Below the pieces are notes generated by a model. It was not told the origin of the DNA. It did no database searches and worked only from the letters and a program-made list of their open reading frames with translations. Position numbers and translations under genes: made by a program. A stretch of 64,000 nt of DNA from Antedon mediterranea (lineage: Eukaryota; Animalia; Echinodermata), in contig NC_092679.1 in assembly GCF_964355755.1 (NCBI RefSeq), positions 14,367,432 through 14,431,431 of the forward strand. Reading direction: 5' to 3'. This document shows positions 658 to 56,022 of this stretch, piece after piece (position 1 is the first letter of the stretch; each line of letters begins with the position of its first letter).

Positions 658-790
658 CTCAATAGTTCACTATGTCTGTCGGTCTGTCTGTCGGTCCGGT
701 ATCACTATGCGTTTTATCGCTTTTCTGTACTTTTTGAACTGTTTTGATGTACTTTTTGAAAGTTCATTTTTTTCTGAGAGCACGCGACTT
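658..790 (+). mobile_element. Helentron-associated (HINE/DINE-1-like) non-autonomous element fragment
   Basis: ATAGTTCACTATGTC-(GTCG/GTCT)n-CCGGTATCACTATGCGTTTTATCGCTTT, shared with the copy at 41134-41530. Confidence 0.55.
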
Positions 791-1008
791 ATGGCTGTTG
801 GCCTTGTTTCTACTAATTCTACAAATTTCATACTGTACTGTTTTGGTTTGTATGACAATAAAAGATCTGTATCTGTACAATGGAAATAAGTTTGACAATT
901 GGTTACTTTTTGTGCTACCCTGAATCCATTGAAATCGAATAAAGAAATGAAATGAAAAATAAGCCTTAACGTTCCTTTTAAAAACCATATTAATTTTGTC
1001 TTTTTCAG

Positions 1009-4000
1009 GCATTGTCTTATCTAAACGAGGCGCAAGAATTGATCAAGACACTTGACACGGGAGTGAAACCCCTGAGTGATGACGTCAACGAGAACATCAC
1101 GGTAGATAGGTATGCACGTGCGCACGTGGAAAGCACAACGGGACAGGTAAATTTAATGTAAACTAAACTATTATCACCTTATAAAAATAACGAACGTTTT
1201 TTAGTAGGCCTACAATGGTATAAATATTTTCATTAGGTGAAAGATGAAAATGTTATATTTGAGGTGAAGCCGATAGGAAATACAACAAATTCTTGTACTG
1301 AATGAAATTATTTGTGCTATTGTACAATTATGAAACATTCAATATTTTATAATTTAAAACTCCAATCAAATGAAAGTATACATTATACTTGGATACTATG
1401 ATTAACGACCCGAATCTTTACGATTTCTAATAGGTATTATAAGTATTTTAATTTATAGGGCTTTTATCTAATTTTTATTTCATTTCGGTTTAAATGTTAT
1501 TGACTGTAGCAGTTTTATATGTTTTATTTTGTTTGGTTTGTTGTTTCACTTTATTATACCGAAAAAAGGTCATCATGACGTACTAGCTAACTTTTAATTC
1601 AGGCTATTTCATTTTTTAACCCTTAAGCTTTGTTCCCACTAGAACGTAACGCAAGGACGTAAACGCAACACAAGCGTTTTAACCAATGACAAGCGAAGTT
1701 ATAGACAGTTAGCAATCACAAGCGAATAAGCCATCGCTTGTGATTGGTAAAATTCACTTGCGTTGCGTTACGTCCTTGTGTTGCGTCGCTAGTGGGAACC
1801 ACTCTTTAAGCTTTGTTCCCACTAGGACGTAACGCAAAGACGTAAAGGCATCCTGTAATTGGCGATTTTTTGCTGTTGGATTTGGTTGAAATAAAACAAA
1901 TAAATAAATAAAAGATAAATAAACGCAACGTAAGCGAGTATCGCCATATCGCTTGTGATTGGTCAACTCACTTTTACGTCCTTGCGTTACGTCTCTAGTG
2001 GGAACCAAAGCATTAACAAATTAAATGGACAGTGGTAATTATACGCAAAGATATTCCTTTTCTGTAGGCAATATTTCAGATGAGGCGTTACAATGATTCT
2101 AAGCCACATTTTCTGACGGCACTTCGCATTCTTGGCAATCACCAACATCATGCCAAAATTCTGACATGGTTTAAGGTTGTGCGGGAAGGGATCAAGCAGT
2201 TTGCACACAAGAAATGCCCAAATTGTTTCATTGGCAAAGCTTCGTAAGTTATATTTCGTATGTAGTTTATTGCCTGTGGTCATAATCAGGCCAATACGGT
2301 TAGCGGAAAACATTAAACGGAAATCAAAATATAGAATCTATTAAATTTCTTATGACCATTCACACATAAACGCGGAGCGGGCGGGCGGTTAGGCGGATAC
2401 CCGCAACAACCCGCTCAAGATAGATACAGATTCTGGGACAAGCACGCGGTTCTCCGCTTATCTGTACCGCTTGTCTGGGGCCAATTTACACAGACGAGCA
2501 GTAACGGTAAAAAATATAAAATCTAGGCTACTTCTTACACAAACGTGAAGGACCGGACAGGCGGTTTCCGCTTAGGATAGATAGGCTACAAATTCTATGT
2601 GAAACAAGATACGCGCTTTTCCAATTACCGTTGGTCTGTCTAAATGGGCCTTAAGATATAATAATTTTCCTTATGATTTAAAATCCATCTGTTAATGGTG
2701 TTTGATTGCGTTGCTATTGACATTTTCAGAAGTGAAATGAGCAACATCTATGTAGAACAAGCCAGATGTTTGTCCTACCTGTGGCAGATTTACTCAAAGG
2801 GGAACGACAAATTGCGAGCTTTGTCGTCTGCCTTGCAGCAACTTAACCGCGCAGAATCATCAGATGACGACTTACACGAGGTACCGTAAACTATTTTGTT
2901 GTTTAGTTGCAGCTCTCTCTGCGTTATCAAACAAAAACAATGTGATGTGGCCAAATATGCTAGTGATATGACGTCATCGTGTCCATATATGGGCACATCA
3001 CAATTTTATGTTCCAAGTTTGACAGTGTACAGTTTTAGCTCAGTCAATTATCAAGTATTATTCCCTTACCCGCCACCCAGCAAAAAAAAAAACATAAAAT
3101 AAATATTAAATATAGATGAAATAAGACATTTTGAATTAAAGCAAAAAAGTTTTTTACTTACATCACTTATTATTTACAAATTTATCTATAATTATTTAGC
3201 AATTTGGAATTATTACAGTAGGCCTGTTCGCGATCATAATAATGAAAAGTTTTTAGATACATACTGTGAATCGATTGGTGGCGCTGTTGTAATGCATTCA
3301 TTGTACTTCCCTGATGCAATACCGATGCAATTTTAAGATTTTCATATTATTAATATAATTAAAAATTAAAGAAAGGTATAACATGACAGGACGAGGTGGC
3401 CGAGTGGTTGTGGCGATGGATTGCTATTCCATTGTGCTTTGCACGCGTGGGTTCGAATCCCATCCTCGTCGATATTTTTAAATAATTAACCGGCCTACAC
3501 ATTTTAGGCCTTACAAGATTTTAGGTATAACCTTTGCTATAGGGATATATGTCTTTTTTCAAATCTTCAAATATATTATATTTTGTAACAGGGGGTTTCT
3601 AAATTTATAAACTGCTGCTTCTTTCCATCCCCTTTTCTCTTTGTATTAGGTATGGTATTATGCTTATTTATATATGTTCTTTGAGAATGGAAATAATAGA
3701 ATAAATTGAACTGAATACAAAAGACAAAATAGATGTAGGAACGTAGACGTGTTTACCTTATGTAATCAAATTAATGCTTATTGTTCAGGAGTCGTTTATT
3801 CAAGGTGGGGTGGTTGATAGTAACATTATGCAGAACAAGGCCATATACATGGCTGCAGTTGCATGCGCAAATTTGAGTTAGTGTTTACCGACCGACCAAC
3901 CGACATAGTGAGCTGTAGAGTCGCGTTTCGACGCGACTAACAATACAGTAGGTACTATGTATATAATGTATGTAAATATAGTATGTGTAGGTCTATGTGG

Positions 4001-7000
4001 CGAAGCAATTTATTCCAAACGATTTTCCGTGGGAGTGTGATTTAAAGTGGGGAATTTATTCGAATGATTACGATACGTTAACTCGTAACTTCTAAATGAA
4101 TTTAATTGGACGCGATAGTAGTGTGACGTCACATGGTCTCATGACGTAAAGTAGCTTTTTCCTGACTGTGATGCAATGGCAGTGCAATTCTGTATTATTT
4201 TTAAATTTTAGTCAAAAGAAAAATGAAATATGACAGGACGAGGTGGCCGAGTGGTTATGGCGATGGATTGCTATTCCATTGTGCTCTGCACGCGTGGGTT
4301 CGAATCCCATCCTCGTCGAACTTCTTTTTTTTAAATTCAACTCATTGTATGCATTTAAAACCTGTTTATGTAAGTAATGTATGTATATGGAATCTATCCA
4401 CTTAAAATAAAAAAGAGGAAAAGATTATTTTAATTCGTTATGTCCGGTATCAATTTTATTCGATTCTGATCAATTCAATCCCTTAGCTTTTGAAATATTG
4501 TTCGACGCATGAAACTTTAAACGTTGGATAGGACGGCTTAATTTCTTTAAAAACGAAAAGTATTACTTTGTTTGGTTTTGGCCTGTACACTGGCGATCCC
4601 CAATGTGGTTCAGGGGCCTCAATAACGAATTTGTTTGTTTTTTTCTGAAAATACAAATGAGAAGGCAAATATTATCGTTCTAGTAAAATGTGAGCTAAGC
4701 AAATGAATTAGAAAGACATTAATTATGCAAATATAAAAAGTAAATAAGCAAATCTGTTTAAAAAACCCATTATGAAGGTTTAATGGAAAAAATTCCATTT
4801 GGGTTACAATCCAATCCTCGTCCCTATAACCCATTTCACCTAAATGTCGATAATAATTGCTTTGATTGTTTAATTGACTTATTATTATTTTGTTTCATAG
4901 TTGATTACTGCATATCGGAGCATAATGGAGTGTTGCCAATCATATCAATGGCCTAGACTCGGTGCTACGTACGAAAGAATGGCTATAAAAAGGTAATTAA
5001 CTAAGTATGATGATACGTTGCTATGCCTATTCACATTATTTGCAGTGTTCGCGAAATAATCAGCCGAATCGGTCGAGTGGGCTAAAAAAACAAACCATGT
5101 CTAGCATTTGAAGTTGAGGTGGTGGGAGGTGGGGGGGGGGGGGGGGGGCGAGAAGTAGTTTAAGACGGAAAGTGCGGTTTATCAGGCATCAGAAAATAAA
5201 ATTAACATATTTTACGAACATCTATTTTTTCTAATATAAATTGCTACCGCTATTTATATGGCGGAAACCAAACACAAATGAACCGTTATGGGAGACGGAA
5301 GTTGTTATATGGGGTAACATCTACCAAGGCAATCTAACAACAGGGTGGTGAGCTCCGAAGATCAAAGGGTTTTAATGCGACACGATCAGTTCAGGCACCG
5401 CGCGCCGCGAAGAATATGGACATTATAGTATTTGTCGGGAGTCCGAGAGTTCCTTCTTGAGAAGGCGAGCTCAGTGTCCTGTTGTTAGATTGCCTTGCAT
5501 CTACTCAACTGCGCTTCTGTACTACTACATCAATGAGCCTGTTTAGAAAGCGCATATAGCGCAAAAGGACGTACCGTAATTTTTGTCAGCTGCATTATCA
5601 TTACTCGCTCGGGAAGAATATTCCTGAACTTGGTTGACAGTGGAAAAAGACTTTAGAGACACATTTACAAAACACTAAATCTCTCCATTGCCGTTTGATA
5701 TTTAGGTGCGTTGAAAGTCCGAGCAATTTTGGTCCAGATGACGTCGTCACAGTTGGCTACCTTTACTGCACAAGCTCAGTGGTGCGGCTTGGAAACGCTA
5801 GAATACAAGGTTCTATAGATGCAGGTATATATTCAGTCTTTATAGTGTTCAACTGTACAACAAAATGTATTACGGTTGGTGAGTACCCTGCCAAAATACG
5901 CAAATTGAGGGCGCTAGGCTTTGCCAAAATACACAAATCATGCCAAAATACGCAAATTAGCCTTGCCAAAATACGCAAATTATGCCAAAATACGCAAATC
6001 AGCCTTGCCAAAATACGCAAATTATGCCAAAATACACAAATTGAGGGCGCGATGCTTTGCCAAAATACGTAAATCATTCCAAAATACGCAAATTTGTATA
6101 TTTTGGCATTATTTGCGTATTTTGGCAAAGCAGATTTGCGTATTTGGCATGATTTGTGTATTTTGGCAAAGCAGATTTGCCTATTTTAGCAAAGCATAGC
6201 GCCCTCAATTTGTGTATTTTGGCAAATTTTTTGCGTATTTTGGCATGATGCTCACCAACCCCACTCATAAAATGTGATTCAATAAGAAAAAAAAAACAAA
6301 GAGTGGTCATTATTGTAATGCACCCGTGTAAGCGCAGATGTTCAAAACAGAACGATATGTTTTGTACGAAATGCAGTAAATGTAGAGACGAAGTGGCTGA
6401 GTTGATGGACTACTCTGTACAAGTGGTTTCGAATACCATCCTCGTCGCCATTTTTTTTTATGAACTGCTCTGAATATGAACACGAATACACCCAGGTACA
6501 TTTCGTATAATTGTTGGAATGGTACTGTGCTGATGTGATAAATGTATAGACGAGGTGGCCGAGTGGTTAAGGCGATGGACTGCTAATCCATTGTGCTCTG
6601 CACGCGTGGGTTCGAATCCCATCCTCGTCGCCATTGTTTATTTTTATGAACTACTCGTTAGTGAATATGTGACCTATTCGAATAAAAATACATATTGTTC
6701 TTATAATAATCCCAGGTACATTTCGTATAAATGTTGGAATGGTACTGTGCGAATGCAATAAATGTATAGACGAGGTGTCCGAGTGGTTAAGGCGATGGAC
6801 TGTTAATCCATTTTGCTCTGCACGCGTGGGTTTGAATCCCATTCTCGTCGCCATTGTTTCTTTTTATGAACTACTCGTTAGTGAATATGTGACCTATTCG
6901 AATAAAAATACATATTGTTCTTATAATAATCCCAGGTACATTTCATATAAATGTTGGAATGGTGCTGTGCGAATGCACTAAGTGTATTGTCGAAATGGCC

Positions 7001-10000
7001 GAGTGGTTAAGGCGATGGACTGCTAATACATTGTGCTCTGCACGCGTGGGTTCGAATCCCATTCTCGTCGCCATTGTTTCTTTTTATGAACTACTCGTTA
7101 ATGAATATTTGACTTATTTGAATAAGAATACACATTCTTCTTTTAATACTCCCAGGTACATTTCGTATAAATGTTGGAATGGTGCTGTGCGAACGCAATA
7201 AATGTATAGACGAGGTGGCCGAGTGGTTAAGGCGAAGGACTGCTAATCCATTGTGCTCTGCACGCGTGGGTTCGAATCCCATCCTCGTCGCCACTGTTTC
7301 TTTTTATGAACTACTCGTTAGTGAATGTGACCTATTCGAATAAAAATACATATTGTTCTTATAATAATCCCAGGTACATTTCGTATAAATGTTGGAATGG
7401 CACTGTGCGAATGCAATAAATTTATAGACGAGGTGTCCGAGTGGTTAAGGCGATGGACTGCTAATCCATTTTGCTCTGCACGCGTGGGTTCGAATCCCAT
7501 TCTCGTCGCCATTGTTTCTTTTTATGAACTACTCGTTAATGAATATTTGACTTATTCGAATAAGAATACACATTCTTCTTTTAATAATCCCAGGTACATT
7601 TCGTATAAATGTTGGAATGGTACTGTGCGAATGCAATTAATGTATAGACGAGGTGGCCGAGTGGTTAAGGCGATGGACTGCTAATCCATTGTGCTCTGCA
7701 CGCGTGGGTTCGAATCCCATCCTCGTCGCCACTGTTTCTTTTTATGAACTACTCGTTAGTGAATGTGACCTATTCGAATAAAAATACATATTGTTCTTAT
7801 AATAAGCCCAGGTACATTTCATATAAAATGTTGGAATGGCACTGTGCGAATGCAATAAATGTATAGACGAGGTGTCCGAGTGGTTAAGGCGATGGACTGC
7901 TAATCCATTGTGCTCTGCACGCGTGGGTTCGAATCCCATTCTCGTCGCCATTGTTTCTTTTTATGAACTACTCGTTAATAAATATTTGACTTATTCGAAT
8001 AAGAATACACATTCTTCTTTTAATAATCCCAGGTACATTTCGTATAAATGTTGGAATGGTACTGTGCGAATGCAATTAATGTATAGACGAGGTGGCCGAG
8101 TGGTTAAGGCGATGGACTGCTAATCCATTGTGCTCTGCACGCGTGGGTTCGAATCCCATCCTCGTCGCCACTGTTTCTTTTTATGAACTACTCGTTAGTG
8201 AATGTGACCTATTCGAATAAAAATACATATTGTTCTTATAATAAGCCCAGGTACATTTCATATAAAATGTTGGAATGGCACTGTGCGAATGCAATAAATG
8301 TATAGACGAGGTGTCCGAGTGGTTAAGGCGATGGACTGCTAATCCATTGTGCTCTGCACGCGTGGGTTCGAATCCCATTCTCGTCGCCATTGTTTCTTTT
8401 TATGAACTACTCGTTAATAAATATTTGACTTATTCGAATAAGAATACACATTCTTCTTTTAATAATCCCAGGTACATTTCGTATAAATGTTGGAATGGTA
8501 CTGTGCGAATGCAATTAATGTATAGACGAGGTGGCCGAGTGGTTAAGGCGATGGACTGCTAATCCATTGTGCTCTGCACGCGTGGGTTCGAATCCCATCC
8601 TCGTCGCCATTGTTTATTTTTATGAACTACTCGTTAGTGAATATGTGACCTATTCGAATAAAAATACATATTGTTCTTATAATAATCCCAGGTACATTTC
8701 ATATAAATGTTGGAATGGTGCTGTGCGAATCCAATAAGTGTATAGACGTGGTGGCCGAGTGGTTAAGGCGATGAACTGCTAATCCATTGTGCTCTGCACG
8801 CGTGGGTTCGAATCCTATTCTCCTCGCCATTCTTTATTTTTATGAACTACTCGTTAGTGAATATGTGACCTATTCGAATAAAAATACATATTGTTCTTAT
8901 AATAATCCCAGGTACATTTCATATAAATGTTGGAATGGTGCTGTGCGAATGCAATAAGTGTATAGACGAGGTGGCCGAGTGGTTAAGGCGATGGACTGCT
9001 AATCCATTGTGCTCTGCACGCGTGGGTTCGAATCCCATCCTCGTCGCCATTGTTTATTTTTATGAACTACTCGTTAGTGAATATGTGACCTATTCGAATA
9101 AAAATACATATTGTTCTTATAATAATCCCAGGTACATTTCATATAAATGCTGGAATGGTGCTGTGCGAATGCAATAAGTGTATAGACGAGGTGGTCGAGT
9201 GGTTAAGGCGATGTACTGCTAATCCATTGTGCTCTGCACGCGTGGGTTCGAATCCCATTCTCGTCGCCATTGTTTCTTTTTATGAACTACTCGTTAATGA
9301 ATATTTGAATTATTCGAATAAGAATACACATTCTTCTTTTAATAATCCCAGGTACATTTCGTATAAATGTTGGAATGGTACTGTGCGAATGCTATTAATG
9401 TATAGACGAGGTGGTCGAGTGGTTAAGGCGATGGACTGCTAATCCATTGTGCTCTGCACGCGTGGGTTCGAATCCCATTCTCGTCGCCATTGTTTATTTT
9501 TATGAACTACTCGTTAGTGAATATGTGACTTATTCGAATAAAAATACACATTCTTCTTATAATAATAATCCCAGGTACATTTCGTATAAATGTTGGAATG
9601 GCACTGTGCGAATGCAATAAATGTATAGACGAGGTGTCCGAGTGGTTAAGGCGATGGACTGCTAATCCATTGTGCTCTGCACGCGTGGGTTCGAATCCCA
9701 TTCTCGTCGCCATTGATTCTTTTTATGAACTACTCGTTAATGAATATGTGACTTATTCGAATAAGAATACACATTCTTCTTATAATAAAAATCCCAGGTA
9801 CATTTCGTATAAATGTTGGAATGGCACTGTGCCGAATGCAATAAATGTATAGACGAGGTGGCCGAGTGGTTAAGGCGATGGACTGCTAATCCATTGTGCT
9901 CTGCACGCGTGGGTTCGAATCCCATCCTCGTCGCCACTGTTTCTTTTTATGAACTACTCGTTAGTGAATGTGACCTATTCGAATAAAAATTCATATTGTT

Positions 10001-13000
10001 CTTATAATAATCCCAGGTACATTTCATATAAATGTTGGAATGGTGCTGTGCGAATGCAATAAGTGTATAGACGAGTGGTTAAGGCGATGGACTGCTAATC
10101 CATTGTGCTCTGCACGCGTGGGTTCGAATCCCATTCGCGTCGCCATTGTTTCTTTTTATGAACTACTCGTTAATGAATATTTGACTTATTCGAATAAGAA
10201 TACACATTCTTCTTTTAATAATCCCAGGTACATTTCGTATAAATGTTGGAATGGTACTGTGCGAATGCAATAAATGTATAGACGAGGTGGCCGAGTGGTT
10301 AAGGCGATGGACTGCTAATCCATTGTGCTCTGCACGCGTGGGTTCGAATCCCATCCTCGTCGCCATTGTTTATTTTTATGAACTACTCGTTAGTGTATGT
10401 GACCTATTCGAATAAAAATACATATTGTTCTTATAATAATCCCAGGTACATTTCATATAAATGCTGGAATGGTACTGTGCGAATACAATTAATGTATAGA
10501 CGAGGTGGCCGAGTGGTTAAGGCGATGGACTGCTAATCCATTGTGCTCTGCACGCGTGGGTTCGAATCCCATCCTCGTCGCCATTGTTTATTTTTATGAA
10601 CTACTCGTTAGTGAATATGTGACCTATTCGAATAAAAATACATATTGTTCTTATAATAATCCCAGGTACATTTTATATAAATGTTGGAATGGTGCTGTGC
10701 GAATGCAATAAGTGTATAGACGAGGTGGCCGAGTGGTTAAGGCGATGGACTGCTAATCCATTGTGCTCTGCACGTGTGGGTTCGAATCCTATTCTCCTCG
10801 CCATTGTTTATTTTTATGAACTACTCGTTAGTGAATATGTGACCTATTCGAATAAAAATACATATTGTTCTTATAATAATCCCAGGTACATTTCATATAA
10901 ATGTTGGAATGGTGCTGTGCGAATGCAATAAGTGTATAGACGAGGTGGCCGAGTGGTTAAGGCGATGGACTGCTAATCCATTGTGCTCTGCACGCGTGGG
11001 TTCGAATCCCATCCTCGTCGCCATTGTTTCTTTTTATGAACTACTCGTTAATGAATATGTGACTTATTCGAATAAGAATACACATTCTTCTTATAATAAA
11101 AATCCCAGGTACATTTCGTATAAATGTTGGAATGGCACTGTGCGAATGCAATAAATGTATAGACGAGGTGGCCGAGTGGTTAAGGCGATGGACTGCTAAT
11201 CCATTGTGCTCTGCACGCGTGGGTTCGAATCCCATCCTCGTCGCCACTGTTTCTTTTTATGAACTACTCGTTAGTGAATGTGACCTATTCGAATAAAAAT
11301 TCATATTGTTCTTATAATAATCCCAGGTACATTTCATATAAATGTTGGAATGGTGCTGTGCGAATGCAATAAGTGTATAGACGAGTGGTTAAGGCGATGG
11401 ACTGCTAATCCATTGTGCTCTGCACGCGTGGGTTCGAATCCCATTCGCGTCGCCATTGTTTCTTTTTATGAACTACTCGTTAATGAATATTTGACTTATT
11501 CGAATAAGAATACACATTCTTCTTTTAATAATCCCAGGTACATTTCGTATAAATGTTGGAATGGTACTGTGCGAATGCAATAAATGTATAGACGAGGTGG
11601 CCGAGTGGTTAAGGCGATGGACTGCTAATCCATTGTGCTCTGCACGCGTGGGTTCGAATCCCATCCTCGTCGCCATTGTTTATTTTTATGAACTACTCGT
11701 TAGTGTATGTGACCTATTCGAATAAAAATACATATTGTTCTTATAATAATCCCAGGTACATTTCATATAAATGCTGGAATGGTACTGTGCGAATACAATT
11801 AATGTATAGACGAGGTGGCCGAGTGGTTAAGGCGATGGACTGCTAATCCATTGTGCTCTGCACGCGTGGGTTCGAATCCCATCCTCGTCGCCATTGTTTA
11901 TTTTTATGAACTACTCGTTAGTGAATATGTGACCTATTCGAATAAAAATACATATTGTTCTTATAATAATCCCAGGTACATTTTATATAAATGTTGGAAT
12001 GGTGCTGTGCGAATGCAATAAGTGTATAGACGAGGTGGCCGAGTGGTTAAGGCGATGGACTGCTAATCCATTGTGCTCTGCACGTGTGGGTTCGAATCCT
12101 ATTCTCCTCGCCATTGTTTATTTTTATGAACTACTCGTTAGTGAATATGTGACCTATTCGAATAAAAATACATATTGTTCTTATAATAATCCCAGGTACA
12201 TTTCATATAAATGTTGGAATGGTGCTGTGCGAATGCAATAAGTGTATAGACGAGGTGGCCGAGTGGTTAAGGCGATGGACTGCTAATCCATTGTGCTCTG
12301 CACGCGTGGGTTCGAATCCCATCCTCGTCGCCATTGTTTCTTTTTATGAACTACTCGTTAATGAATATGTGACTTATTCGAATAAGAATACACATTCTTC
12401 TTATAATAAAAATCCCAGGTACATTTCGTATAAATGTTGGAATGGCACTGTGCGAATGCAATAAATGTATAGACGAGGTGGCCGAGTGGTTAAGGCGATG
12501 GACTGCTAATCCATTGTGCTCTGCACGCGTGGGTTCGAATCCCATCCTCGTCGCCACTGTTTCTTTTTATGAACTACTCGTTAGTGAATGTGACCTATTC
12601 GAATAAAAATTCATATTGTTCTTATAATAATCCCAGGTACATTTCATATAAATGTTGGAATGGTGCTTTGCGAATGCAATAAGTGTATAGACGAGGTGGT
12701 TAAGGCAATGGACTGCTAATCCATTGTGCTCTGCACGCGTGGGTTCGAATCCCATTCGCGTCGCCATTGTTTCTTTTTATGAACTACTCGTTAATGAATA
12801 TTTGACTTATTCGAATAAGAATACACATTCTTCTTTTAATAATCCCAGGTACATTTCGTATAAATGTTGGATCGAATGGTACTGTGCGAATGCAATAAAT
12901 GTATAGACGAGGTGGCCGAGTGGTTAAGGCGATGGACTGCTAATCCATTGTGCTCTGCACGCGTGGGTTCGAATCCCATCCTCTTCGCCATTGTTTATTT

Positions 13001-16000
13001 TTATGAACTACTCGTTAGTGTATGTGACCTATTCGAATAAAAATACATATTGTTCTTATAATAATCCCAGGTACATTTCATATAAATGCTGGAATGGTGC
13101 TGTGCGAATGCAATAAGTGTATAGACGAGGTGGTCGAGTGGTTAAGGCGATGGACTGCTAATCCATTGTGCTCTGCACGCGTGGGTTCGAATCCCATTCT
13201 CGTCGCCATTGTTTCTTTTTATGAACTACTCGTTAATAAATATTTGACTTATTCGAATAAGAATACACATTCTTCTTATAATAAAAATCCCAGGTACATT
13301 TCGTATAAATGTTGGAATGGCACTGTGCGAATGCAATAAATGTATAGACGAGGTGGCCGAGTGGTTAAGGCGATGGACTGCTAATCCATTGTGCTCTGCA
13401 CGCGTGGGTTCAAATCCCATCCTCGTCGCCATTGTTTATTTTTATGAACTACTCGTTAGTGAATATGTGACCTATTCGAATAAAAATACATATTGTTCTT
13501 ATAATAATCCCAGGTACATTTCATATAAATGCTGGAATGGTGCTGTGCGAATGCAATAAGTGTATAGACGAGGTGGTCGAGTGGTTAAGGCGATGGACTG
13601 CTAATCCATTGTGCTCTGCACGCGTGGGTTCGAATCCCATCCTCGTCGCCATTGTTTATTTTTATGAACTACTCGTTAGTGAATATGTGACCTATTCGAA
13701 TAAAAATACATATTGTTCTTATAATAATCCCAGGTACATTTCGTATAAATGTTGGAATGGTACTGTGCGAATGCTATTAATGTATAGACGAGGTGGTCGA
13801 GTGGTTAAGGCGATGGACTGCTAATCCATTGTGCTCTGCATGCGTGGGTTCGAATCCCATTCTCGTCGCCATTGTTTATTTTTATGAACTACTCGTTAGT
13901 GAATATGTGACTTATTCGAATAAAAATACACATTCTTCTTATAATAATAATCCCAGGTACATTTCGTATAAATGTTGGAATGGCACTGTGCGAATGCAAT
14001 AAATGTATAGACGAGGTGTCTGAGTGGTTAAGGCGATGGACTGCTAATCCATTGTGCTCTGCACGCGTGGGTTTGAATCCCATCCTCGTCGCCACTGTTT
14101 CTTTTTATGAACTACTCGTTAGTGAATGTGACCTATTCGAATAAAAATACATATTGTTCTTATAATAAGCCCAGGTACATTTCATATAAAATGTTGGAAT
14201 GGCACTGTGCGAATGCAATAAATGTATAGACGAGGTGGCCGAGTGGTTAAGGCGATGGACTGCTAATCCATTGTGCTCTGCACGCGTGGGTTCGAATCCC
14301 ATTCTCGTCGCCATTGTTTCTTTTTATGAACTACTCGTTAATGAATATTTGACTTATTCGAATAAAAATACATATTGTTCTTATAATAATCCCAGGTACA
14401 TTTCATATAAATGCTGGAATGGTGCTGTGCGAATGCAATAAGTGTATAGACGAGGTGGTCGAGTGGTTAAGGCGATGGACTGCTAATCCATTGTGGTCTG
14501 CACGCGTGGGTTCGAATCCCATTCTCGTCGCCATTGTTTCTTTTTATGAACTACTCCTTAATGAATATTTGAATTATTCGAATAAGAATACACATTCTTC
14601 TTTTAATAATCCCAGGTACATTTCGTATAAATGTTGGAATGGTACTGTGCGAATGCTATTAATGTATAGACGAGGTGGTCGAGTGGTTAAGGCGATGGAC
14701 TGCTAATCCATTTTGCTCTGCACGCGTGGGTTCGAATCCCATTCTCGTCGCCATTGATTCTTTTTATGAACTACTCGTTAATGAATATGTGACTTATTCG
14801 AATAAGAATACACATTCTTCTTATAATAAAAATCCCAGGTACATTTCGTATAAATGTTGGAATGGCACTGTGCCGAATGCAATAAATGTATAGACGAGGT
14901 GGCCGAGTGGTTAAGGCGATGGACTGCTAATACATTGTGCTCTGCACGCGTGGGTTCGAATCCCATCCTCGTCGCCACTGTTTCTTTTTATGAACTACTC
15001 GTTAGTGAATGTGACCTATTCGAATAAAAATACATATTGTTCTTATAATAAGCCCAGGTACATTTCATATAAAATGTTGGAATGGCACTGTGCGAATGCA
15101 ATAAATGTATAGACGAGGTGTCCGAGTGGTTAAGGCGATGGACTGCTAATCCATTGTGCTCTGCACGCGTGGGTTCGAATCCCATTCTCGTCGCCATTGT
15201 TTCTTTATATGAACTACTCGTTAATGAATATTTGACTTATTCGAATAAGAATACACATTCTTCTTTTAATAATCCCAGGTACATTTCGTATAAATGTTGG
15301 AATGGTACTGTGCGAATGCAATTAATGTATAGACGAGGTGGCCGAGTGGTTAAGGCGATGGACTGCTAATCCATTGTGCTCTGCACGCGTGGGTTCGAAT
15401 CCCATCCTCGTCGCCATTGTTTATTTTTATGAACTACTCGTTAGTGAATATGTGACCTATTCGAATAAAAATACATATTGTTCTTATAATAATCCCAGGT
15501 ACATTTCATATAAATGTTGGAATGGTGCTTTGCGAATGCAATAAGTGTATAGACGAGGTGGTTAAGGCGATGGACTGCTAATCCATTGTGCTCTGCACGC
15601 GTGGGTTCGAATCCCATCCTCGTCGCCACTGTTTCTTTATATGAACTACTCGTTAATGAATATTTGACTTATTCGAATAAGAATACACATTCTTCTTTTA
15701 ATAATCCCAGGTACATTTCGTATAAATGTTGGAATGGTACTGTGCGAATGCAATTAATGTATAGACGAGGTGGCCGAGTGGTTAAGGCGATGGACTGCTA
15801 ATCCATTGTGCTCTGCACGCGTGGGTTCGAATCCCATCCTCGTCGCCATTGTTTATTTTTATGAACTACTCGTTAGTGAATATGTGACCTATTCGAATAA
15901 AAATACATATTGTTCTTATAATAATCCCAGGTACATTTCATATAAATACGAATGCAATAAGTGTATAGACGAGGTGGTTAAGGCAATGGACTGCTAATCC

Positions 16001-19000
16001 ATTGTGCTCTGCACGCGTGGGTTCGAATCCCATTCGCGTCGCCATTGTTTCTTTTTATGAACTACTCGTTAATGAATATTTGACTTATTCGAATAAGAAT
16101 ACACATTCTTCTTTTAATAATCCCAGGTACATTTCGTATAAATGTTGGAATGGTACTGTGCGAATGCAATTAATGTATAGACGAGGTGGCCGAGTGGTTA
16201 AGGCGATGGACTGCTAATCCATTGTGCTCTGCACGCGTGGGTTCGAATCCCATCCTCGTCGCCATTGTTTATTTTTATGAACTACTCGTTAGTGTATGTG
16301 ACCTATTCGAATAAAAATACATATTGTTCTTATAATAATCCCAGGTACATTTCATATAAATGCTGGAATGGTGCTGTGCGAATGCAATAAGTGTATAGAC
16401 GAGGTGGTCGAGTGGTTAAGGCGATGGACTGCTAATCCATTGTGCTCTGCACGCGTGGGTTCGAATCCCATTCTCGTCGCCATTGTTTCCTTTTATGAAC
16501 TACTCGTTAATAAATATTTGACTTATTCGAATAAGAATACACATTCTTCTTTTAATAATCCCAGGTACATTTCGTATAAATGTTGGAATGGTACTGTGCG
16601 AATACAATTAATGTATAGACGAGGTGGCCGAGTGGTTAAGGCGATGGACTGCTAATCCATTGTGCTCTGCACGCGTGGGTTCGAATCCCATCCTCGTCGC
16701 CATTGTTTATTTTTATGAACTACTCGTTAGTGGATATGTGACCTATTCGAATAAAAATACATATTGTTCTTATAATAATCCCAGGTACATTTCATATAAA
16801 TGTTGGAATGGTGCTGTGCGAATGCAATAAGTGTATAGACGAGGTGGCCGAGTGGTTAAGGCGATGGACTGCTAATCCATTGTGCTCTGCACGCGTGGGT
16901 TCGAATCCTATTCTCCTCGCCATTGTTTATTTTTATGAACTACTCGTTAGTGAATATGTGACCTATTCGAATAAAAATACATATTGTTCTTATAATAATC
17001 CCAGGTACATTTCATATAAATGTTGGAATGGTGCTGTGCGAATGCAATAAGTGTATAGACGAGGTGGCCGAGTGGTTGCGCCGATGGACTGCTAATCCAT
17101 TGTGCTCTGCACGCGTGGGTTCGAATCCCATCCTCGTCGCCATTGGTTATTTTTATGAACTACTCGTTAGTGAATATGTGACCTATTCGAATAAAAATAC
17201 ATATTGTTCTTATAATAATCCCAGGTACATTTCATATAAATGCTGGAATAGTGCTGTGCGAATGCAATAAGTGTATAGACGAGGTGGTCGAGTGGTTAAG
17301 GCGATGGACTGCTAATCCATTGTGCTCTGCACGCGTGGGTTCGAATCCCATTCTTGTCGCCATTGTTTCTTTTTATGAACTACTCGTTAATGAATATTTG
17401 ACTTATTCGAATAAGAATACACATTCTTCTTTTAATAATCCCAGGTACATTTCATATAAATGTTGGAATTGTACTGTGCGAATGCAATTAATGTATAGAC
17501 GAGGTGCCCGAGTGGTTAAGGCGATGGACTGCTAATCCATTGTGCTCTGCACGCGTGGGTTCGAATCCCATCCTCGTCGCCACTGTTTCTTTTTATGAAC
17601 TACTCGTTAGTGAATGTGACCTATTCGAATAAAAATACATATTGTTCTTATAATAAGCCCAGGTACATTTCGTATAAATGTTGGAATGGTACTGTGCGAA
17701 TGCTATTAATGTATAGACGAGGTGGTCGAGTGGTTAAGGCGATGGACTGCTAATCCATTGTGCTCTGCACGCGTGGGTTCGAATCCCATTCTCGTCGCCA
17801 TTGATTCTTTTTATGAACTACTCGTTAATGAATATGTGACTTATTCGAATAAGAATACACATTCTTCTTATAATAAAAATCCCAGGTACATTTCGTATAA
17901 ATGTTGGAATGGCACTGTGCCGAATGCAATAAATGTATAGACGAGGTGTCCGAGTGGTTAAGGCGATGGACTGCTAATCCATTTTGCTCTGCACGCGTGG
18001 GTTCGAATCCCATCCTCGTCGCCACTGTTTCTTTTTATGAACTACTCGTTAGTGAATGTGACCTATTCGAATAAAAATTCATATTGTTCTTATAATAATC
18101 CCAGGTACATTTCATATAAATGTTGGAATGGTGCTGTGCGAAAGCAATAAGTGTATAGACGAGGTGGTTAAGGCAATGGACTGCTAATCCATTGTGCTCT
18201 GCACGCGTGGGTTCGAATCCCATTCTTTTTATGAACTACTCGTTAATGAATATTTGACTTATTCGAATAAGAATACACATTCTTCTTTTAATAATCCCAG
18301 GTACATTTCGTATAAATGTAGGAATGGTACTGTGCGAATGCAATAAATGTATAGACGAGGTGGCCGAGTGGTTAAAGCGATGGACTGCTAATACATTGTG
18401 CTCTGCACGCGTGGGTTCGAATCCCATTCTCGTCGCCATTGTTTCTTTTTATGAACTACTCGTTAATGAATATTTGACTTATTTGAATAAGAATACACAT
18501 TCTTCTTTTAATACTCCCAGGTACATTTCGTATAAATGTTGGAATGGTGCTGTGCGAACGCAATTAATGTATAGACGAGGTGGCCGAGTGGTTAAGGCGA
18601 TGGACTGCTAATCCATTGTGCTCTGCACGCGTGGGTTCGAATCCCATCCTCGTCGCCATTGTTTATTTTTATGAACTACTCGTTAGTGTATGTGACCTAT
18701 TCGAATAAAAATACATATTGTTCTTATAATAATCCCAGGTACATTTCATATAAATGCTGGAATGGTGCTGTGCGAATGCAATAAGTGTATAGACGAGGTG
18801 GTCGAGTGGTTAAGGCGATGGACTGCTAATCCATTGTGCTCTGCACGCGTGGGTTCGAATCCCATCCTCGTCGCCATTGTTTCTTTTTATGAACTACTCG
18901 TTAGTGAATATGTGACCTATTCGAATAAAAATACATATTGTTCTTATAATACTCCCAGGTACATTTCGTATAAATGTTGGAATGGCACTGTGCGAATGCA

Positions 19001-22000
19001 ATAAATGTATAGACGAGGTGGCCGAGTGGTTAAGGCGATGGACTGCTAATCCATTGTGCTCTGCACGCGTGGGTTCGAATCCCATCCTCGTCGCCATTGT
19101 TTATTTTTATGAACTACTCGTTAGTGAATATGTGACCTAACTACTCGTTAATGAATATTTGACTTATTCGAATAAGAATACACATTCTTCTTTTAATAAT
19201 CCCAGGTAGACTAGGCTATGAATGAGGTAGGTGCCACCCGGAGAGGTAGAAATTCTCATATAACTTTTCTAGACCAGTTTTTTCTGGGGAATCCAAATAT
19301 ATTGGGTAAACGGGCTGTAACCTGAGAACTTTCGCGTGAGGGCGCTTTTTTCAAAATGGCTGCCAGTTACAGTAGACTATGATATCTTGGCAACCACTGG
19401 TCACAGAAAGTTGATTTTGGTGTCAAATTATTCGGAATGTACATGTTCCTATTTGATGTAATAGAACATTTTGTCAGAAAATGGCCGGAAATACCTCTAT
19501 TGACCTTTGACCCAATATCTAACAGATATCATATCTCCGTAACTACTGGACACAGAAAGTTGTAATTGGTGTCAAACTCTCCAGAATATAGATGTTTATA
19601 TTCAAACTAATAGAACATTATCTGTAAAAATGACCGGAAATAACGTTACTGACCTTTGACCCAAAATGCAAGACATTTCTCCTATCTGATCACGTTAATC
19701 CTGTCAATTAATTCATTTTGTGCCAATTGGAGGTTGACATTCTCATATTATTTTCTTGACCAGTTTTTCATGTGCAATCCGAGTAATATGAGATAAATAA
19801 GCCATAACAAGGCCAAGAATTTAATTCTTTTACTACATACATGCTTCCCTTTAGTGTTTCAGTCTGTATGTCGTGTATTAATCTTCAAGATCGCTCAGAT
19901 CACTGCAATCTGAAAAGTCTTCATATTCATTATGTGTAAACAGTTTCTGGACATCAGTGGGCATCACTGTCTCAATCCATTTAGGCTCCTTTTGTTCGTT
20001 CCATCCATTGTGTGTACTGTTGTTGACAAAATCATTGACGTCTGCTGATTGCCATTCTTTAGTAATGAAGTGTGCTCTAAGTATATGAAACTCAAGGGTC
20101 TGCTGACATAGTGGCAGTAATTATATATCTGTAATCTTGTTGTGTCTGGAAAACTTTCTGTTGAAGATATCATATCTGGCTTGATTTACACTTTTCCCCT
20201 TCACTCCATACAATGGTGAAACATACTCTTCAAGTTCCTCATACAACTCTTTTGATGGAACATCTGACACTCCAAGGTTGCAGAATGTGTCAACACATTT
20301 TGCTTTTGATTCCAGAAGCTTCCAGCAGGTACATTTTCCTTTCCGAAAGAAAGCGGAGTTATACTTGTTACCTGTGAAAGCATGGAATCCAATAAGGGAT
20401 GATTTCTGCGCTTTTGTTAAATCAATGTCACTCAATTTCAGTACATTTCGGTATTTCCCAGTGTTTGTATCAATAATTACCCTCTGCCCATCATATATGA
20501 AATGAGATAGTGAAATGACTGGAATATCAAAGTCTCCAGAATGGGAACGAATTATTGCTACGCCTTGATTGTTATTTGTTAAAGCATGCTTTGCATGCAG
20601 GATGACTTTCGTGTCGGCTTCTTCTTGGCTACTATTAAGCTCCGGAACCAATACAACATATCTCAGTTAGTAACGTAGATGCATTCTTTGTACGATGAAA
20701 AGTAGATAACATCACTCCTCATATCTGTTAGAATGCTTTCTTTCTTTGACACTAGTACACAGCGAGTAAGTGTTGGAATGGTACTGTGCGAATGCAATTA
20801 ATGTATAGACGAGGTGGCCGAGTGGTTAAGGCGATGGACTGCTAATCCATTGTGCTCTGCACGCGTGGGTTCGAATCCCATCCTCGTCGCCATTGTTTAT
20901 TTTTATGAACTACTCGTTAGTGAATATGTGACCTATTCGAATAAAAATACATATTGTTCTTATAATAATCCCAGGTACATTTCATATAAATGTTGGAATG
21001 GTGCTGTGCGAATCCAATAAGTGTATAGACGTATTGGCCGAGTGGTTAAGGCGATGAACTGCTAATCCATTGTGCTCTGCACGCGTGGGTTCGAATCCTA
21101 TTCTCCTCGCCATTGTTTATTTTTATGAACTACTCGTTAGTGAATATGTGACCTATTCGAATAAAAATACATATTGTTCTTATAATAATCCCAGGTACAT
21201 TTCATACAAATGTTGGAATGGTGCTGTGCGAATGCAATAAGTGTATAGACGAGGTGGCCGAGTGGTTAAGGCGGTGGACTGCTAATCCATTGTGCTCTGC
21301 ACGCGTGGGTTCGTATCCCATCCTCGTCGCCATTGTTTATTTTTATGAACTACTCGTTAGTGAATATGTGACCTATTCGAATAAAAATACATATTGTTCT
21401 TATAATAATCCCAGGTACATTTCATATAAATGCTGGAATGGTGCTGTGCGAATGCAATAAGTGTATAGACGAGGTGGTCGAGTGGTTAAGGCGATGGACT
21501 GCTAATCCATTGTGGTCTGCACGCGTGGGTTCGAATCCCATTCTCGTCGCCATTGTTTCTTTTTATGAACTACTCCTTAATGAATATTTGAATTATTCGA
21601 ATAAGAATACACATTCTTCTTTTAATAATCCCAGGTACATTTCGTATAAATGTTGGAATGGTACTGTGCGAATGCTATTAATGTATAGACGAGGTGGTCG
21701 AGTGGTTAAGGCGATGGACTGCTAATCCATTTTGCTCTGCACGCGTGGGTTCGAATCCCATTCTCGTCGCCATTGATTCTTTTTATGAACTACTCGTTAA
21801 TGAATATGTGACTTATTCGAATAAGAATACACATTCTTCTTATAATAAAAATCCCAGGTACATTTCGTATAAATGTTGGAATGGCACTGTGCCGAATGCA
21901 ATAAATGTATAGACGAGGTGGCCGAGTGGTTAAGGCGATGGACTGCTAATACATTGTGCTCTGCACGCGTGGGTTCGAATCCCATCCTCGTCGCCACTGT

Positions 22001-25000
22001 TTCTTTTTATGAACTACTCGTTAGTGAATGTGACCTATTCGAATAAAAATACATATTGTTCTTATAATAATCCCAGGTACATTTCATATAAATGCTGGAA
22101 TGGTGCTGTGCGAATGCAATAAGTGTATAGACGAGGTGGTCGAGTGGTTAAGGCGATGGACTGCTAATCCATTGTGCTCTGCACGCGTGGGTTCGAATCC
22201 CATTCTCGTCGCCATTGTTTCTTTTTATGAACTACTCGTTAATGAATATTTGAATTATTCGAATAAGAATACACATTCTTCTTTTAATAATCCCAGTTAC
22301 ATTTCGTATAAATGTTGGAATGGCACTGTGCGAATGCTATTAATGTATAGGCGAGGTGGTCGAGTGGTTAAGGCGATGGACTGCTAATCCATTGTGCTCT
22401 GCACGCGTGGGTTCGAATCCCATCCTCGTCGCCATTGTTTATTTTTATGAACTACTCGTTAGTGAATATGTGACCTATTCGAATAAAAATACATATTGTT
22501 CTTATAATAATCCCAGGTACATTTCATATAAATGTTGGAATGGTGCTTTGCGAATGCAATAAGTGTATAGACGAGGTGGTTAAGGCAATGGACTGCTAAT
22601 CCATTGTGCTCTGCACGCGTGGGTTCGAATCCCATTCGCGTCGCCATTGTTTCTTTTTATGAACTACTCGTTAATGAATATTTGACTTATTCGAATAAGA
22701 ATACACATTCTTCTTTTAATAATCCCAGGTACATTTCGTATAAATGTTGGATCGAATGGTACTGTGCTAATGCAATAAATGTATAGACGAGGTGGCCGAG
22801 TGGTTAAGGCGATGGACTGCTAATCCATTGTGCTCTGCACGCGTGGGTTCGAATCCCATCCTCGTCGCCATTGTTTATTTTTATGAACTACTCGTTAGTG
22901 TATGTGACCTATTCGAATAAAAATACATATTGTTCTTATAATAATCCCAGGTACATTTCATATAAATGCTGGAATGGTGCTGTGCGAATGCAATAAGTGT
23001 ATAGACGAGGTGGTCGAGTGGTTAAGGCGATGGACTGCTAATCCATTGTGCTCTGCAAGCGTGGGTTCGAATCCCATTCTCGTCGCCATTGTTTCCTTTT
23101 ATGAACTACTCGTTAATAAATATTTGACTTATTCGAATAAGAATACACATTCTTCTTTTAATAATCCCAGGTACATTTCGTATAAATGTTGGAATGGTAC
23201 TGTGCGAATACAATTAATGTATAGACGAGGTGGCCGAGTGGTTAAGGCGATGGACTGCTAATCCATTGTGCTCTGCACGCGTGGGTTCGAATCCCATCCT
23301 CGTCGCCATTGTTTATTTTTATGAACTACTCGTTAGTGGATATGTGACCTATTCGAATAAAAATACATATTGTTCTTATAATAATCCCAGGTACATTTCA
23401 TATAAATGTTGGAATGGTGCTGTGCGAATGCAATAAGTGTATAGACGAGGTGGCCGAGTGGTTAAGGCGATGGACTGCTAATCCATTGTGCTCTGCACGC
23501 GTGGGTTCGAATCCTATTCTCCTCGCCATTGTTTATTTTTATGAACTACTCGTTAGTGAATATGTGACCTATTCGAATAAAAATACATATTGTTCTTATA
23601 ATAATCCCAGGTACATTTCATATAAATGTTGGAATGGTGCTGTGCGAATGCAATAAGTGTATAGACGAGGTGGCCGAGTGGTTGCGCCGATGGACTGCTA
23701 ATCCATTGTGCTCTGCACGCGTGGGTTCGAATCCCATCCTCGTCGCCATTGGTTATTTTTATGAACTACTCGTTAGTGAATATGTGACCTATTCGAATAA
23801 AAATACATATTGTTCTTATAATAATCCCAGGTACATTTCATATAAATGCTGGAATAGTGCTGTGCGAATGCAATAAGTGTATAGACGAGGTGGTCGAGTG
23901 GTTAAGGCGATGGACTGCTAATCCATTGTGCTCTGCACGCGTGGGTTCGAATCCCATTCTTGTCGCCATTGTTTCTTTTTATGAACTACTCGTTAATGAA
24001 TATTTGACTTATTCGAATAAGAATACACATTCTTCTTTTAATAATCCCAGGTACATTTCATATAAATGTTGGAATTGTACTGTGCGAATACAATTAATGT
24101 ATAGACGAGGTGGCCGAGTGGTTAAGGCGATGGACTGCATGCTAATCCATTGTGCTCTGCACGCGTGGGTTCGAATCCCATCCTCGTCGCCATTGTTTAT
24201 TTTCATGAACTACTCGTTAGTGAATATGTGACCTATTCGAATAAAAATACATATTGTTCTTATAATAATCCCAGGTACATTTCATATAAATGTTGGAATG
24301 GTGCTGTGCGAATGCAATAAGTGTATAGACGAGGTGGCCGAGTGGTTGCGCCGATGGACTGCTAATCCATTGTGCTCTGCACGCGTGGGTTCGAATCCCA
24401 TCCTCGTCGCCATTGGTTATTTTTATGAACTACTCGTTAGTGAATATGTGACCTATTCGAATAAAAATACATATTGTTCTTATAATAATCCCAGGTACAT
24501 TTCATATAAATGCTGGAATAGTGCTGTGCGAATGCAATAAGTGTATAGACGAGGTGGTCGAGTGGTTAAGGCGATGGACTGCTAATCCATTGTGCTCTGC
24601 ACGCGTGGGTTCGAATCCCATTCTCGTCGCCATTGTTTCTTTTTATGAACTACTCGTTAATGAATATTTGACTTATTCGAATAAGAATACACATTCTTCT
24701 TTTAATAATCCCAGGTACATTTCATATAAATGTTGGAATTGTACTGTGCGAATACAATTAATGTATAGACGAGGTGGCCGAGTGGTTAAGGCGATGGACT
24801 GCATGCTAATCCATTGTGCTCTGCACGCGTGGGTTCGAATCCCATCCTCGTCGCCATTGTTTATTTTCATGAACTACTCGTTAGTGAATATGTGACCTAT
24901 TCGAATAAAAATACATATTGTTCTTATAATAATCCCAGGTACATTTCATATAAATGTTGGAATGGTGCTGTGCGAATGCAATAAGTGTATAGATGAGGTG

Positions 25001-28000
25001 GCCGAGTGGTTAAGGCGATGGACTGCTAATCCATTGTGCTCTGCACGTGTGGGTTCGAATCCTATTCTCCTCGCCATTGTTTATTTTTATGAACTACTCG
25101 TTAGTGAATATGTGACCTATTCGAATAAAAATACATATTGTTCTTATAATAATCCCAGGTACATTTCATATAAATGTTGGAATGGTGCTGTGCGAATGCA
25201 ATAAGTGTATAGACGAGGTGGCCGAGTGGTTAAGGCGATGGACTGCTAATCCATTGTGGTCTGCACGCTTGGGTTCGAATCCCATCCTCGTCGCCATTGT
25301 TTATTTTTATGAACTACTCGTTAGTGAATATGTGACCTATTCGAATAAAAATACATATTGTTCTTATAATAATCCCAGGTACATTTCATATAAATGCTGG
25401 AATGGTGCTGTGCGAATGCAATAAATGTATAGACGAGGTGGTCGAGTGGTTAAGGCGATGGACTGCTAATCCATTGTGCACTGCACGCGTGGGTTCGAAT
25501 CCCATTCTCGTCGCCATTGTTTCTTTTTATGAACTACTCGATAGTGAATATGTGACCTATTCGAATAAAAATACATATTGTTCTTATAATACTCCCAGGT
25601 ACATTTCGTATAAATGTTGGAATGGCACTGTGCGAATGCAATAAATGTATAGACGAGGTGGCCGAGTGGTTAAGGCGATGGACTGCTAATCCATTGTGCA
25701 CTGCACGCGTGGGTTCGAATCCCATCCTCGTCGCCATTGTTTCTTTTTATGAACTACTCGTTAGTGAATATGTGACCTATTCGAATAAAATTACATATTG
25801 TTTTTATAATAATCCCAGGTACATTTCATATAAATGTTGGAATGGTGCTGTGCGAATGCAATAAATGTATAGACGAGGTGGCCGAGTGGTTAAGGCGATG
25901 GACTGCTAATCCTTTGTGCTCCGCACGCGTGGTTTCGAATCCCATCCTCGTCGCCATTGTTTCTTTTTATGAACTACTCGTTAGTGAATATGTGACCTAT
26001 TCGAATAAAAATACATATTGTTCTTTTAATAATCCCAAGTACATTTCATATAAATGTTGGAATGGTGCTGTGCGAATGCAATAAGTGTATAGACGAGGTG
26101 GCCGAGTGGTTAAGGCGATGGACTGCTAATCCATTGTGCTCGCGTGGGTTCGAATCCCATTCTCGTCGCCATTGTTTCTTTTTATGAACTACTCGTTAGT
26201 GAATATGTGACCTATTCGAATAAAAATACATATTGTTCTTATAATATTCCCAGATACATTTCGTATAAATGTTGGAATGGTACTGTGCGAATGCAATAAA
26301 TGTATAAACAAGGTGGCCGAGTGGCTAAGGCGATGGACTGCTAATCCATCCTCGTCGCCATTGTTTCTTTTAATGAACTACTCGTTAGTAAATATGTGAC
26401 CTATTCGAATAAAAATACATATTGTTCTTATAATAATCCCAGGTACATTTCATATAATTGTTGGAATTTTATTGTGCGAATGCAATAAATGTATAGACGA
26501 GGTGGCCGAGTGGTTAAGGCGATGGACTGCTAATCCATTGTGCTCTGCACGCGTGGGTTCGAATCCCATCCTCGTCGCCATTGTTTATTTTTATGAACTA
26601 CTCGTTAGTGAATATGTGACCTATTCGAATAAAAATACATATTGTTCTTATAATAATCCCAGGTACATTTCATATAAATGTTGGAATGGTGCTGTGCGAA
26701 TGCAATAAATGTATAGATGAGGTGGCCGAGTGGTTAAGGCGATGGACTGCTAATCCTTTGTGCGTGGGTTCGAATCCCATCCTCGTCGCCATTGTTTATT
26801 TTTATGAACTACTCGTTAGTGAATATGTGACCTATTCGAATAAAAATACATATTGTTCTTTTAATAATCCCAAGTACATTTCATATAAATGTTGGAATGG
26901 TGCTGTGCGAATGCAATAAGTGTATAGACGAGGTTGCCGAGTGGTTAAGACTATGGACTGCTAATCCATTGTGCTCTGCTCGCGTGGGTTCGAATCCCAT
27001 CCTCGTCGCCATTGTTTATTTTTATGAACTACTCGTTAGTGAATATGTGACCTATTCGAATAAAAATACATTTTGTTCTTATAATAATCCCAGGTACATT
27101 TCATATAAATGTTGGAATGGTGCTAGCTGTGCGAATGCAATAAGTGTATAGACGAGGTGGCCGAGTGGTTAAGGCGATGGGCTGCTAATCCATTGTGCTC
27201 TGCTCGCGTGGGTTCGAATCCCATCCTCGTCGCCATTGTTTCTTTTTATGAACTACTCGTTAATGAATATGTGACCTATTCGAATAAGAATACACATTGT
27301 TCTTATAATAATCCCAGGTACATTTCGTATAAATGTTGGAATGGTGCTGTGCGAACGCAATAAATGTATAGACGAGGTGGATGAGGACCGCTAATCCATT
27401 GTGCTCTGCACACGTGGGTTCGAATCCCATCCTCGTCGCCATTTTGTTTTTTTATGAACTACTCGTTTGTGAGTTAGTTTATAAAATGTATGACGTTGGC
27501 TACAAAAGCATAATCGGTTTGTTCTTGTTTTAGGGACCGGGTTAGGGACACTTCGGGGCTGGCATTTAGGGGACGACCAACATTACCCATGATACGCATA
27601 GCAGCAGCCTGTATTTATACATGGTCATTATTATAAAATATTAATTGAGATAAAATCCAACGATTTATATTTCCCTTGCTTGTTATCGTATATATAGTCT
27701 GGTAAACCTATTTTAGGAATATGTTATTACTGTGCAGTGAAGCGTGAAAGATAATAATCACAAAATACTTATTATTCGCCCGTATGTAAACACAGTAGTA
27801 TGTTTAAATTGCCAGAAGCTGTTGTTTATTATGAACGTTTTATTTTCTATTGTTATCTTACCCAGTATTGTGGATTTACTATTTGCGACTGGCTGTCGTG
27901 AAAGACGAGGTGGCCGAGTGGTTAAGGCGATGGACTGCTAATCCATTGTGCTCTGCACGCGTGGGTTCGAATCCCATCCTCGTCGCCATTTTTTTTTTTT

Positions 28001-55944: not shown

Positions 55945-56022
55945 CTTAGCAGATTGTAGAATATTAACTATTGAATATTCTTACTCACAGATTAATCTTC
56001 TTATTGACGCGCTTTCCGTTAT

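Follow-up and report, generated by a model that had tools for sequence, protein, structure and literature searches.

A tandem array of 89 tRNA-Ser(GCT) units with templated CCA within one intron of an ADCY10-like gene of Antedon mediterranea

Large clusters of a single type of transfer RNA (tRNA) gene and tRNA genes nested in introns are both known. Here we describe a tandem array of tRNA-Ser(GCT) genes in one intron of a gene for an adenylate cyclase type 10-like (ADCY10-like) protein, found in a 64-kb stretch of Antedon mediterranea DNA (contig NC_092679.1; hereafter the window, in which all positions are numbered). The array differs from the described systems by its size within one intron and by a CCA triplet that is templated in the DNA.

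Homogeneous clusters of at least 50 tRNA genes (tDNAs) are reported from Nematostella and teleosts (PMC2888827). Like the Antedon array, they consist of parallel tDNAs within 1000 nt of each other and have at least 50 members; the part of that study considered here describes no single-isoacceptor array of this size in one intron. In plants, Arabidopsis carries 27 copies of tRNA-Pro and 27 of a Tyr-Tyr-Ser (SYY) unit, and maize carries 28 copies of tRNA-Ile (PMC12652284, PMC12308677). What the plant arrays have in common with that of Antedon is tandem duplication at a short period, involving one tRNA gene or a few, single-type arrays included, whereas the Antedon array belongs to an animal, comprises 89 monomers and is nested in an intron. 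The SYY array is heterochromatic and methylated (PMC12308677), in contrast to the Antedon array, in which no CpG decay is seen. The variable number tandem repeat of human tRNA genes in 1q23.3 is likewise a tandem tDNA repeat of a deuterostome; it is unstable in copy number, has been proposed as a boundary element, and has a GC-rich unit of 7.3 kb with a conserved CTCF site (PMC4041453), whereas the Antedon unit is 220 bp long and holds one gene. Intron-nested tRNA genes with possible cross-talk to the host are found in C. elegans (PMC4999229) and among mitochondrial-type intronic tRNAs (nimtRNA), which raised splicing and were not processed out of the intron (PMC7722341). These are single genes or clusters of at most seven mitochondrial-type copies, as against 89 nuclear-type genes that take up about 84% of their intron in Antedon.

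Entamoeba keeps its main, probably subtelomeric, store of tRNA genes in arrays with short tandem repeats in the spacers. The Antedon array resembles these as a long tandem tRNA array, but it is interstitial and Tandem Repeats Finder (TRF) reported no short tandem repeats in its spacers. The Entamoeba arrays are also named in PMC2888827. In the feather star Glyptometra, 11,013 tRNAs have been predicted, a number that may include repeats (PMC13079724), while a sea cucumber has 1032 tRNA genes, 74 of them for Ser, and its tRNAs avoid introns (PMC8580430). The first-pass annotation of this stretch had called such an array unusual. Given the clusters of at least 50 tDNAs and the Glyptometra predictions, this was overstated, although we found no comparable array in one intron. 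Nor did we find a report of this locus, in a literature survey for which subscription journals were mostly outside the scope; arrays of this kind could be listed in the cluster tables that go with PMC2888827 and PMC12652284.

We counted the units by BLAST, called tRNA genes with ARAGORN and took repeat periods from TRF. The window holds 93 copies of the Ser(GCT) gene, namely 89 array units, one decayed lead unit and three solo genes. In the array (6460-27453, plus strand), an 82-nt tRNA-Ser(GCT) gene and a 138-bp spacer and trailer together form a unit of about 220 bp, and the length is exactly 220 bp in 49 of the 89. All units stand head-to-tail on the plus strand, in one orientation that is sense to the host gene, and lie within 1000 nt of each other apart from a single 1.8-kb gap at an insertion. 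Periods of 220 and 440 were reported by TRF over 6491-27472, together with a period of 189 over the units and one local 27-bp duplication. The first intact gene (6549-6630, plus strand) equals the array consensus, carries the templated CCA followed by a T5 run, and matches Rfam RF00005 with 66.3 bits over 82 nt in a scan of window positions 1-8000. Subtraction of about 1.6 kb of foreign DNA from the 21-kb span leaves about 19.3 kb of array DNA.

ARAGORN called 90 tRNA genes, 87 in the array and the three solo genes, and labeled the array calls as 84 Ser-GCT, one Asn and two Cys. We rejected the Asn and Cys labels as other tRNAs, since these are mutated Ser copies. The GCT anticodon is present in 88/89 units, two of which have a 4-nt insertion in the anticodon loop; this is a duplication in the units at 24104-24192 and 24768-24856. 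The unit at 6769-6853 has a GTT anticodon on a Ser body, plus other damage. Reading frames of about 100 codons that run across the array are by-products of the repeat and not genes.

The array lies in a GT-AG intron of 22,943 bp (5825-28767, plus strand), between plus-strand exons at 5706-5824 and 28768-28864. Among 14 candidates, one exon picked out just one protein, XP_071962575.1, at 100% identity. This is 'adenylate cyclase type 10-like [Antedon mediterranea]', which is 1741 residues long and has cyclase and AAA domains. Within the window, nine exons are in frame and AG-bounded, eight with GT after them and the last ending at the stop, and correspond to residues 1280-1741. Seven other introns of the gene that we compared measure 408-2020 bp, against 22,943 bp for the array intron. 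Exon 28768-28864 is joined to later exons in two RNA-looking contigs. One of these, contig 10 of run X5 (A. mediterranea; its RNA origin is our guess), joins the exons at 28768, 29436 and 29960 and extends 308 nt 5' of them with sequence that is absent from the intron. Its match starts at 28766, as expected for an upstream exon that ends in CAG, and exon 5706-5824 ends in CAG. The predicted junction of 5824 with 28768 is supported by this match start and by the exon frame. The host gene is still spliced, as seen in this presumed RNA contig, and the array genes are intronic tRNA genes, nested in a protein gene that undergoes splicing. In a contig from organism B (run X9), the intronic stretch 28531-28644, just 3' of the array, is joined to exon 28768. 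GT follows this stretch at 28645, its frame into exon 28768 carries a stop, and there is overlap with a high-copy repeat; the stretch may represent a cryptic exon or else a non-coding first exon used as an alternative.

Signals for RNA polymerase III (Pol III) are widespread in the array. TATAAA occurs at -43 in 85/89 units, a T5 terminator in 82/89, and A box and B box motifs, scored by sequence pattern, are both matched in 68/89, including 29 units with a damaged tRNA. In orientation and spacing, in its one isoacceptor and in its Pol III signals, this is a homogeneous tandem tDNA array. We graded the gene copies by an in-house rule of 24 stem pairs and 18 invariant positions, which is not that of tRNAscan-SE. 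By this rule, 24 genes are identical to the consensus and a further 15 retain every pair and invariant, whereas in 37 one of these is broken and 13 carry indels. Thus, 39 copies are structurally sound and 50 (56%) are damaged. Most of the description in the first-pass annotation agrees with these data: some 89 head-to-tail units of about 220 bp with an 82-nt Ser(GCT) gene and a spacer, about 25 consensus copies, the TATAAA, terminator and boxes, the sense orientation in one intron of an ADCY10-like gene, and the phase-compatible exons around it. The array had also been given about 21 of the 22.9 kb between these exons, which holds for its span but not for its DNA, given the non-array insertion.

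The CCA directly after the discriminator had been absent from that annotation. It is found in 88/89 array genes, in the lead unit and in the solo gene at 27904, and not in the solo genes at 3390 or 4237. Most organisms add CCA post-transcriptionally (PMC4538823), and CCA, above all C74, generally inhibits tRNase Z, while CCA-containing precursors of prokaryotes undergo exonuclease trimming (PMC3161902). The templated CCA thus predicts a slower or different 3' maturation of the array transcripts, whose 3' ends would be poor substrates of tRNase Z. Its presence across the array may be chance, the array being one founder copied.

Comparison of the units indicates how the array was built. There are 72 distinct sequences among the 89 units, with a mean pairwise distance of 5.3%, and 35 units have a twin without a substitution difference. 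Two spacer types alternate (54 runs versus 42 in shuffles, p = 0.004), and matching blocks recur at lags of 2, 3, 6, 23, 25 and 49 units, some of them across the insertion. Thus, the array has a higher-order repeat structure of dimer alternation and duplicated blocks. We infer that it grew through repeated block duplication; unequal exchange or template switching would leave such blocks. A tRNA-derived short interspersed element or a processed pseudogene has an A-rich tail, a target-site duplication and dispersed copies. A retroposed origin of this kind was rejected for the units, which have CCA followed by a T run, no A tail and a tandem arrangement.

The three solo Ser(GCT) genes, which add to the first description, all sit in introns of the same ADCY10-like gene. 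The copy at 27904-27985 (plus strand) shares the array intron but has its own flanks, and its CCA is followed by a 13-T run. The copies at 3390-3471 and 4237-4318 (plus strand; ARAGORN and Rfam), in the 2881-4900 intron, show five and three differences from the consensus, respectively, and the three are common to both. Both genes carry the same changes at position 22 and at two positions of the anticodon loop, 32 and 38, and form a distinct variant. The lead unit (6387-6447, plus strand) is decayed and has internal deletions. We compared flanks by local alignment against 500 shuffles in 20 comparisons, for which p = 0.002 is the floor. The 5' flank of the lead unit aligns with the array spacer and with the flank of the 27904 gene (p = 0.002 each), as do the 5' flanks of the 3390 and 4237 genes with each other (p = 0.002). 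The array flanks have no significant alignment with the flanks of the 3390, 4237 and 27904 genes. From the flanks shared by the lead unit, the spacer and the 27904 gene, and by the 3390 and 4237 genes, it is probable that a small Ser(GCT) cluster was present in these introns before the array expanded. The consensus gene and the 27904 gene are identical at 82/82 positions although their flanks are not significantly alignable, which argues that the founder gene was constrained.

The changes among the units carry a footprint that may be that of transcription. For rare events we dropped the edge units (87/89 used), masked sites near indels and merged clustered changes. Between -20 and the terminator lie 58/82 rare events, against 46.5 expected after base matching (p = 0.005). 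In the spacer alone, the part between these limits has 16/40 events where 10.0 are expected (p = 0.026). The number of rare events per base is 0.21 for the far spacer, 0.32 for -45 to -21, 0.45 for -20 to -1, 0.51 for the gene and 0.47 for the trailer. An elevated mutation rate in tRNA genes and the flanks next to them has been described as a mark of transcription-associated mutagenesis (PMC13010820, which cites Thornlow 2018). The concentration of rare mutations on the Pol III transcription unit suggests that the array is transcribed in the germline. On the sense strand, G>T changes (13/48) exceed C>A changes (3/40, p = 0.025), one of six strand pairs tested, on which we do not rely.

Common alleles bear on selection. 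With 64 non-homologous columns of the first unit masked, alleles found in at least 10 units number 2/52 in the gene, both of which make G-U pairs, and 15/64 in the spacer (p = 0.003). No damaging allele reached 10 copies (0/32, p = 0.002 versus the spacer). Gene and spacer are equally free to diverge in rare events, but not in common alleles. Weak selection on the array as a whole is suggested, as it fits both results.

We propose that the array is a passenger, grown from one intronic tRNA gene by local duplication, transcribed by Pol III copy by copy, weakly selected as a whole and subject to birth-and-death turnover. We hold this to be the probable explanation, if not a firm one. A small older Ser(GCT) cluster would have stood in the introns and one of its copies would have been duplicated. 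The duplicate would have diverged into two alternating unit types, and template switching or unequal exchange would then have amplified these in blocks of 2, 3, 6, 23, 25 and 49 units. From every unit whose boxes are intact, a separate short pre-tRNA would be made that terminates at the T run, and mutation would be more frequent over the gene and the adjacent flanks as a result of this transcription. Copies with damage would persist, each copy mattering little, yet would not spread widely. The 3' ends of the pre-tRNAs would possibly be trimmed instead of cut by tRNase Z, and transcription of the host gene would run across the whole array, which would then be spliced out. The first-pass annotation had offered a dosage locus, a boundary domain and a decaying satellite as its three readings. 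A mix of the first and third fits an array that is probably transcribed, weakly constrained and damaged in 50 of its 89 copies, but we see no support for either a boundary role or selection on serine dosage.

Several observations weigh against the passenger explanation. The common spacer alleles are partly linked, so that the p-values of 0.003 and 0.002 are optimistic. Rare events in the gene body show no purging (42 versus 42.2 expected from the inner flanks), damaging rare changes are not depleted (25/39 single events versus 23.8 expected), and damaging alleles show no difference in copy number from tolerated ones (p = 0.28). The body of a functional tRNA gene has a depletion of changes in comparison with its flanks (PMC13010820). 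This depletion is missing from the rare events here, and the recent record would therefore also fit an array that no longer matters; early constraint with none now also explains both the rare-event and the common-allele results. With 22/77 single events, C>T and G>A are not dominant, which is not the typical spectrum, and the low rate in the far spacer could instead come from constraint or conversion there. Among the known systems, the Ser/Tyr array of Arabidopsis is silent in most tissues (PMC12308677) and same-strand intronic tRNAs of C. elegans have lower Pol III occupancy (PMC4999229).

The alternative that survives best is an inert satellite born from tRNA genes, whose units were silenced after amplification and decay neutrally. 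It would accommodate the 50 damaged copies and the drop in exact-consensus copies along the array, from 14/30 in the first third through 7/29 in the middle to 3/30 in the last, as well as rare changes that strike stems and invariant sites at chance level, the higher-order repeats and the foreign insertion. Such a satellite is nonetheless unlikely, because rare mutations are concentrated on the transcription unit, damaging alleles are never common and 21 units retain the exact gene together with TATAAA and T5. Changes at CpG are also not in excess (11/22 versus 23/66 sites, p = 0.22), and thus no methylation mark is evident.

The array could also be a selected dosage locus, where one tissue obtains additional tRNA-Ser(GCT) for proteins that are AGY-rich and where activation may be coupled to that of the host gene. 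Its 24 to 39 sound genes would make up a large part of a repertoire such as that of the sea cucumber, which has 74 Ser genes (PMC8580430), but with 11,013 tRNA predictions in a feather star genome (PMC13079724) the 89 copies may be a small one. There are precedents in the Arabidopsis Ser/Tyr array, which is reactivated in root cap cells and whose deletion alters a Ser/Tyr/Pro-rich protein (PMC12308677), and in the intronic tRNAs of C. elegans, which are affected by host promoters (PMC4999229). Damage to more than half of the copies with no recent purging, and a templated CCA that is predicted to slow normal 3' processing, make a selected dosage locus distinctly unlikely. A more far-reaching proposal, which we regard as improbable, would make the array a battery of tRNA genes with templated CCA, matured by bacterial-style trimming or excised, as a polycistronic tRNA precursor of natural origin, from the pre-mRNA of the ADCY10-like gene. 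In that case, tRNA-Ser(GCT) would be set free as a tissue-specific pool when the host is transcribed, and the amount of host mRNA would in turn be limited by the processing of the tRNAs.

It is very improbable that the array acts in cis, lowering or diverting ADCY10-like expression through TFIIIC and Pol III binding or through tRNA structures and processing signals in the pre-mRNA. Both boxes are kept in 68/89 units, 29 of them with a damaged tRNA, but the box positions have no evident special conservation (5 events at invariant sites versus 8.5 expected, p = 0.12). The sense strand of the array has 98 AATAAA (4.7 per kb, where eight other introns have 1.7) as well as 86 CAG-GTA sites; each unit repeats these motifs, which stem from the sequence of a single founder in 89 copies. 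Transient transfection with five nuclear tRNAs inserted into the intron of a reporter led to lower mRNA (PMC7722341), and the organism B contig starts in the array intron 3' of the array and splices to 28768; against this, a host contig with normal splicing exists. Least of all do we credit an assembly artefact, in which duplicated or collapsed blocks account for part of the copy number: exact repeats of 1525 bp at a lag of 1310 bp and of 1031 bp at a lag of 6606 bp speak for it, but 72 units are distinct, nested variants are shared at many lags, the window contains no N, and an error could shift the count by some units without creating the array.

The insertion that interrupts the array (approximately 19210-20769, minus strand) has a decayed 181-codon frame at 20121-20666 and an internal 141-bp repeat, and is probably a transposon fragment. 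At its junction about 13 bp of an array unit are missing and a 27-bp duplication precedes it; no target-site duplication was clear by eye. The frame has no Pfam match above the cut-off, and its nearest Atlas clusters are unnamed eukaryotic proteins (0.97), with the TCR and XPG-I families only as leads below 0.9. Just upstream of the array, at 5889-6250, a short tandem repeat (periods 19-42) is apparently followed by its inverted copy, by eye resembling a miniature inverted-repeat element. Minisatellites of 32, 61 and 17 bp lie at 1-417, 30945-31192 and 60597-61271, respectively. On the minus strand, frames at 51735-55980 resemble gag, reverse transcriptase and integrase, presumably of a long terminal repeat retrotransposon in pieces, and we take fragments at 49045-50430 to resemble the reverse transcriptase of a long interspersed nuclear element. 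A 33-nt spacer pattern had 0 matches in metagenome contigs, which is uninformative for a marine animal.

If the array is only a passenger, it would add another example to the tRNA arrays that may be numerous in the genomes of this group. With 89 sibling copies that have their own flanking variants, transcription-driven mutation would be separable, within one locus, from selection that acts on redundant tRNA genes. The locus also bears on whether animals mature nuclear pre-tRNAs with a templated CCA, and on how a gene transcribed by RNA polymerase II deals with an intron in which Pol III units on the same strand take up 19 kb.

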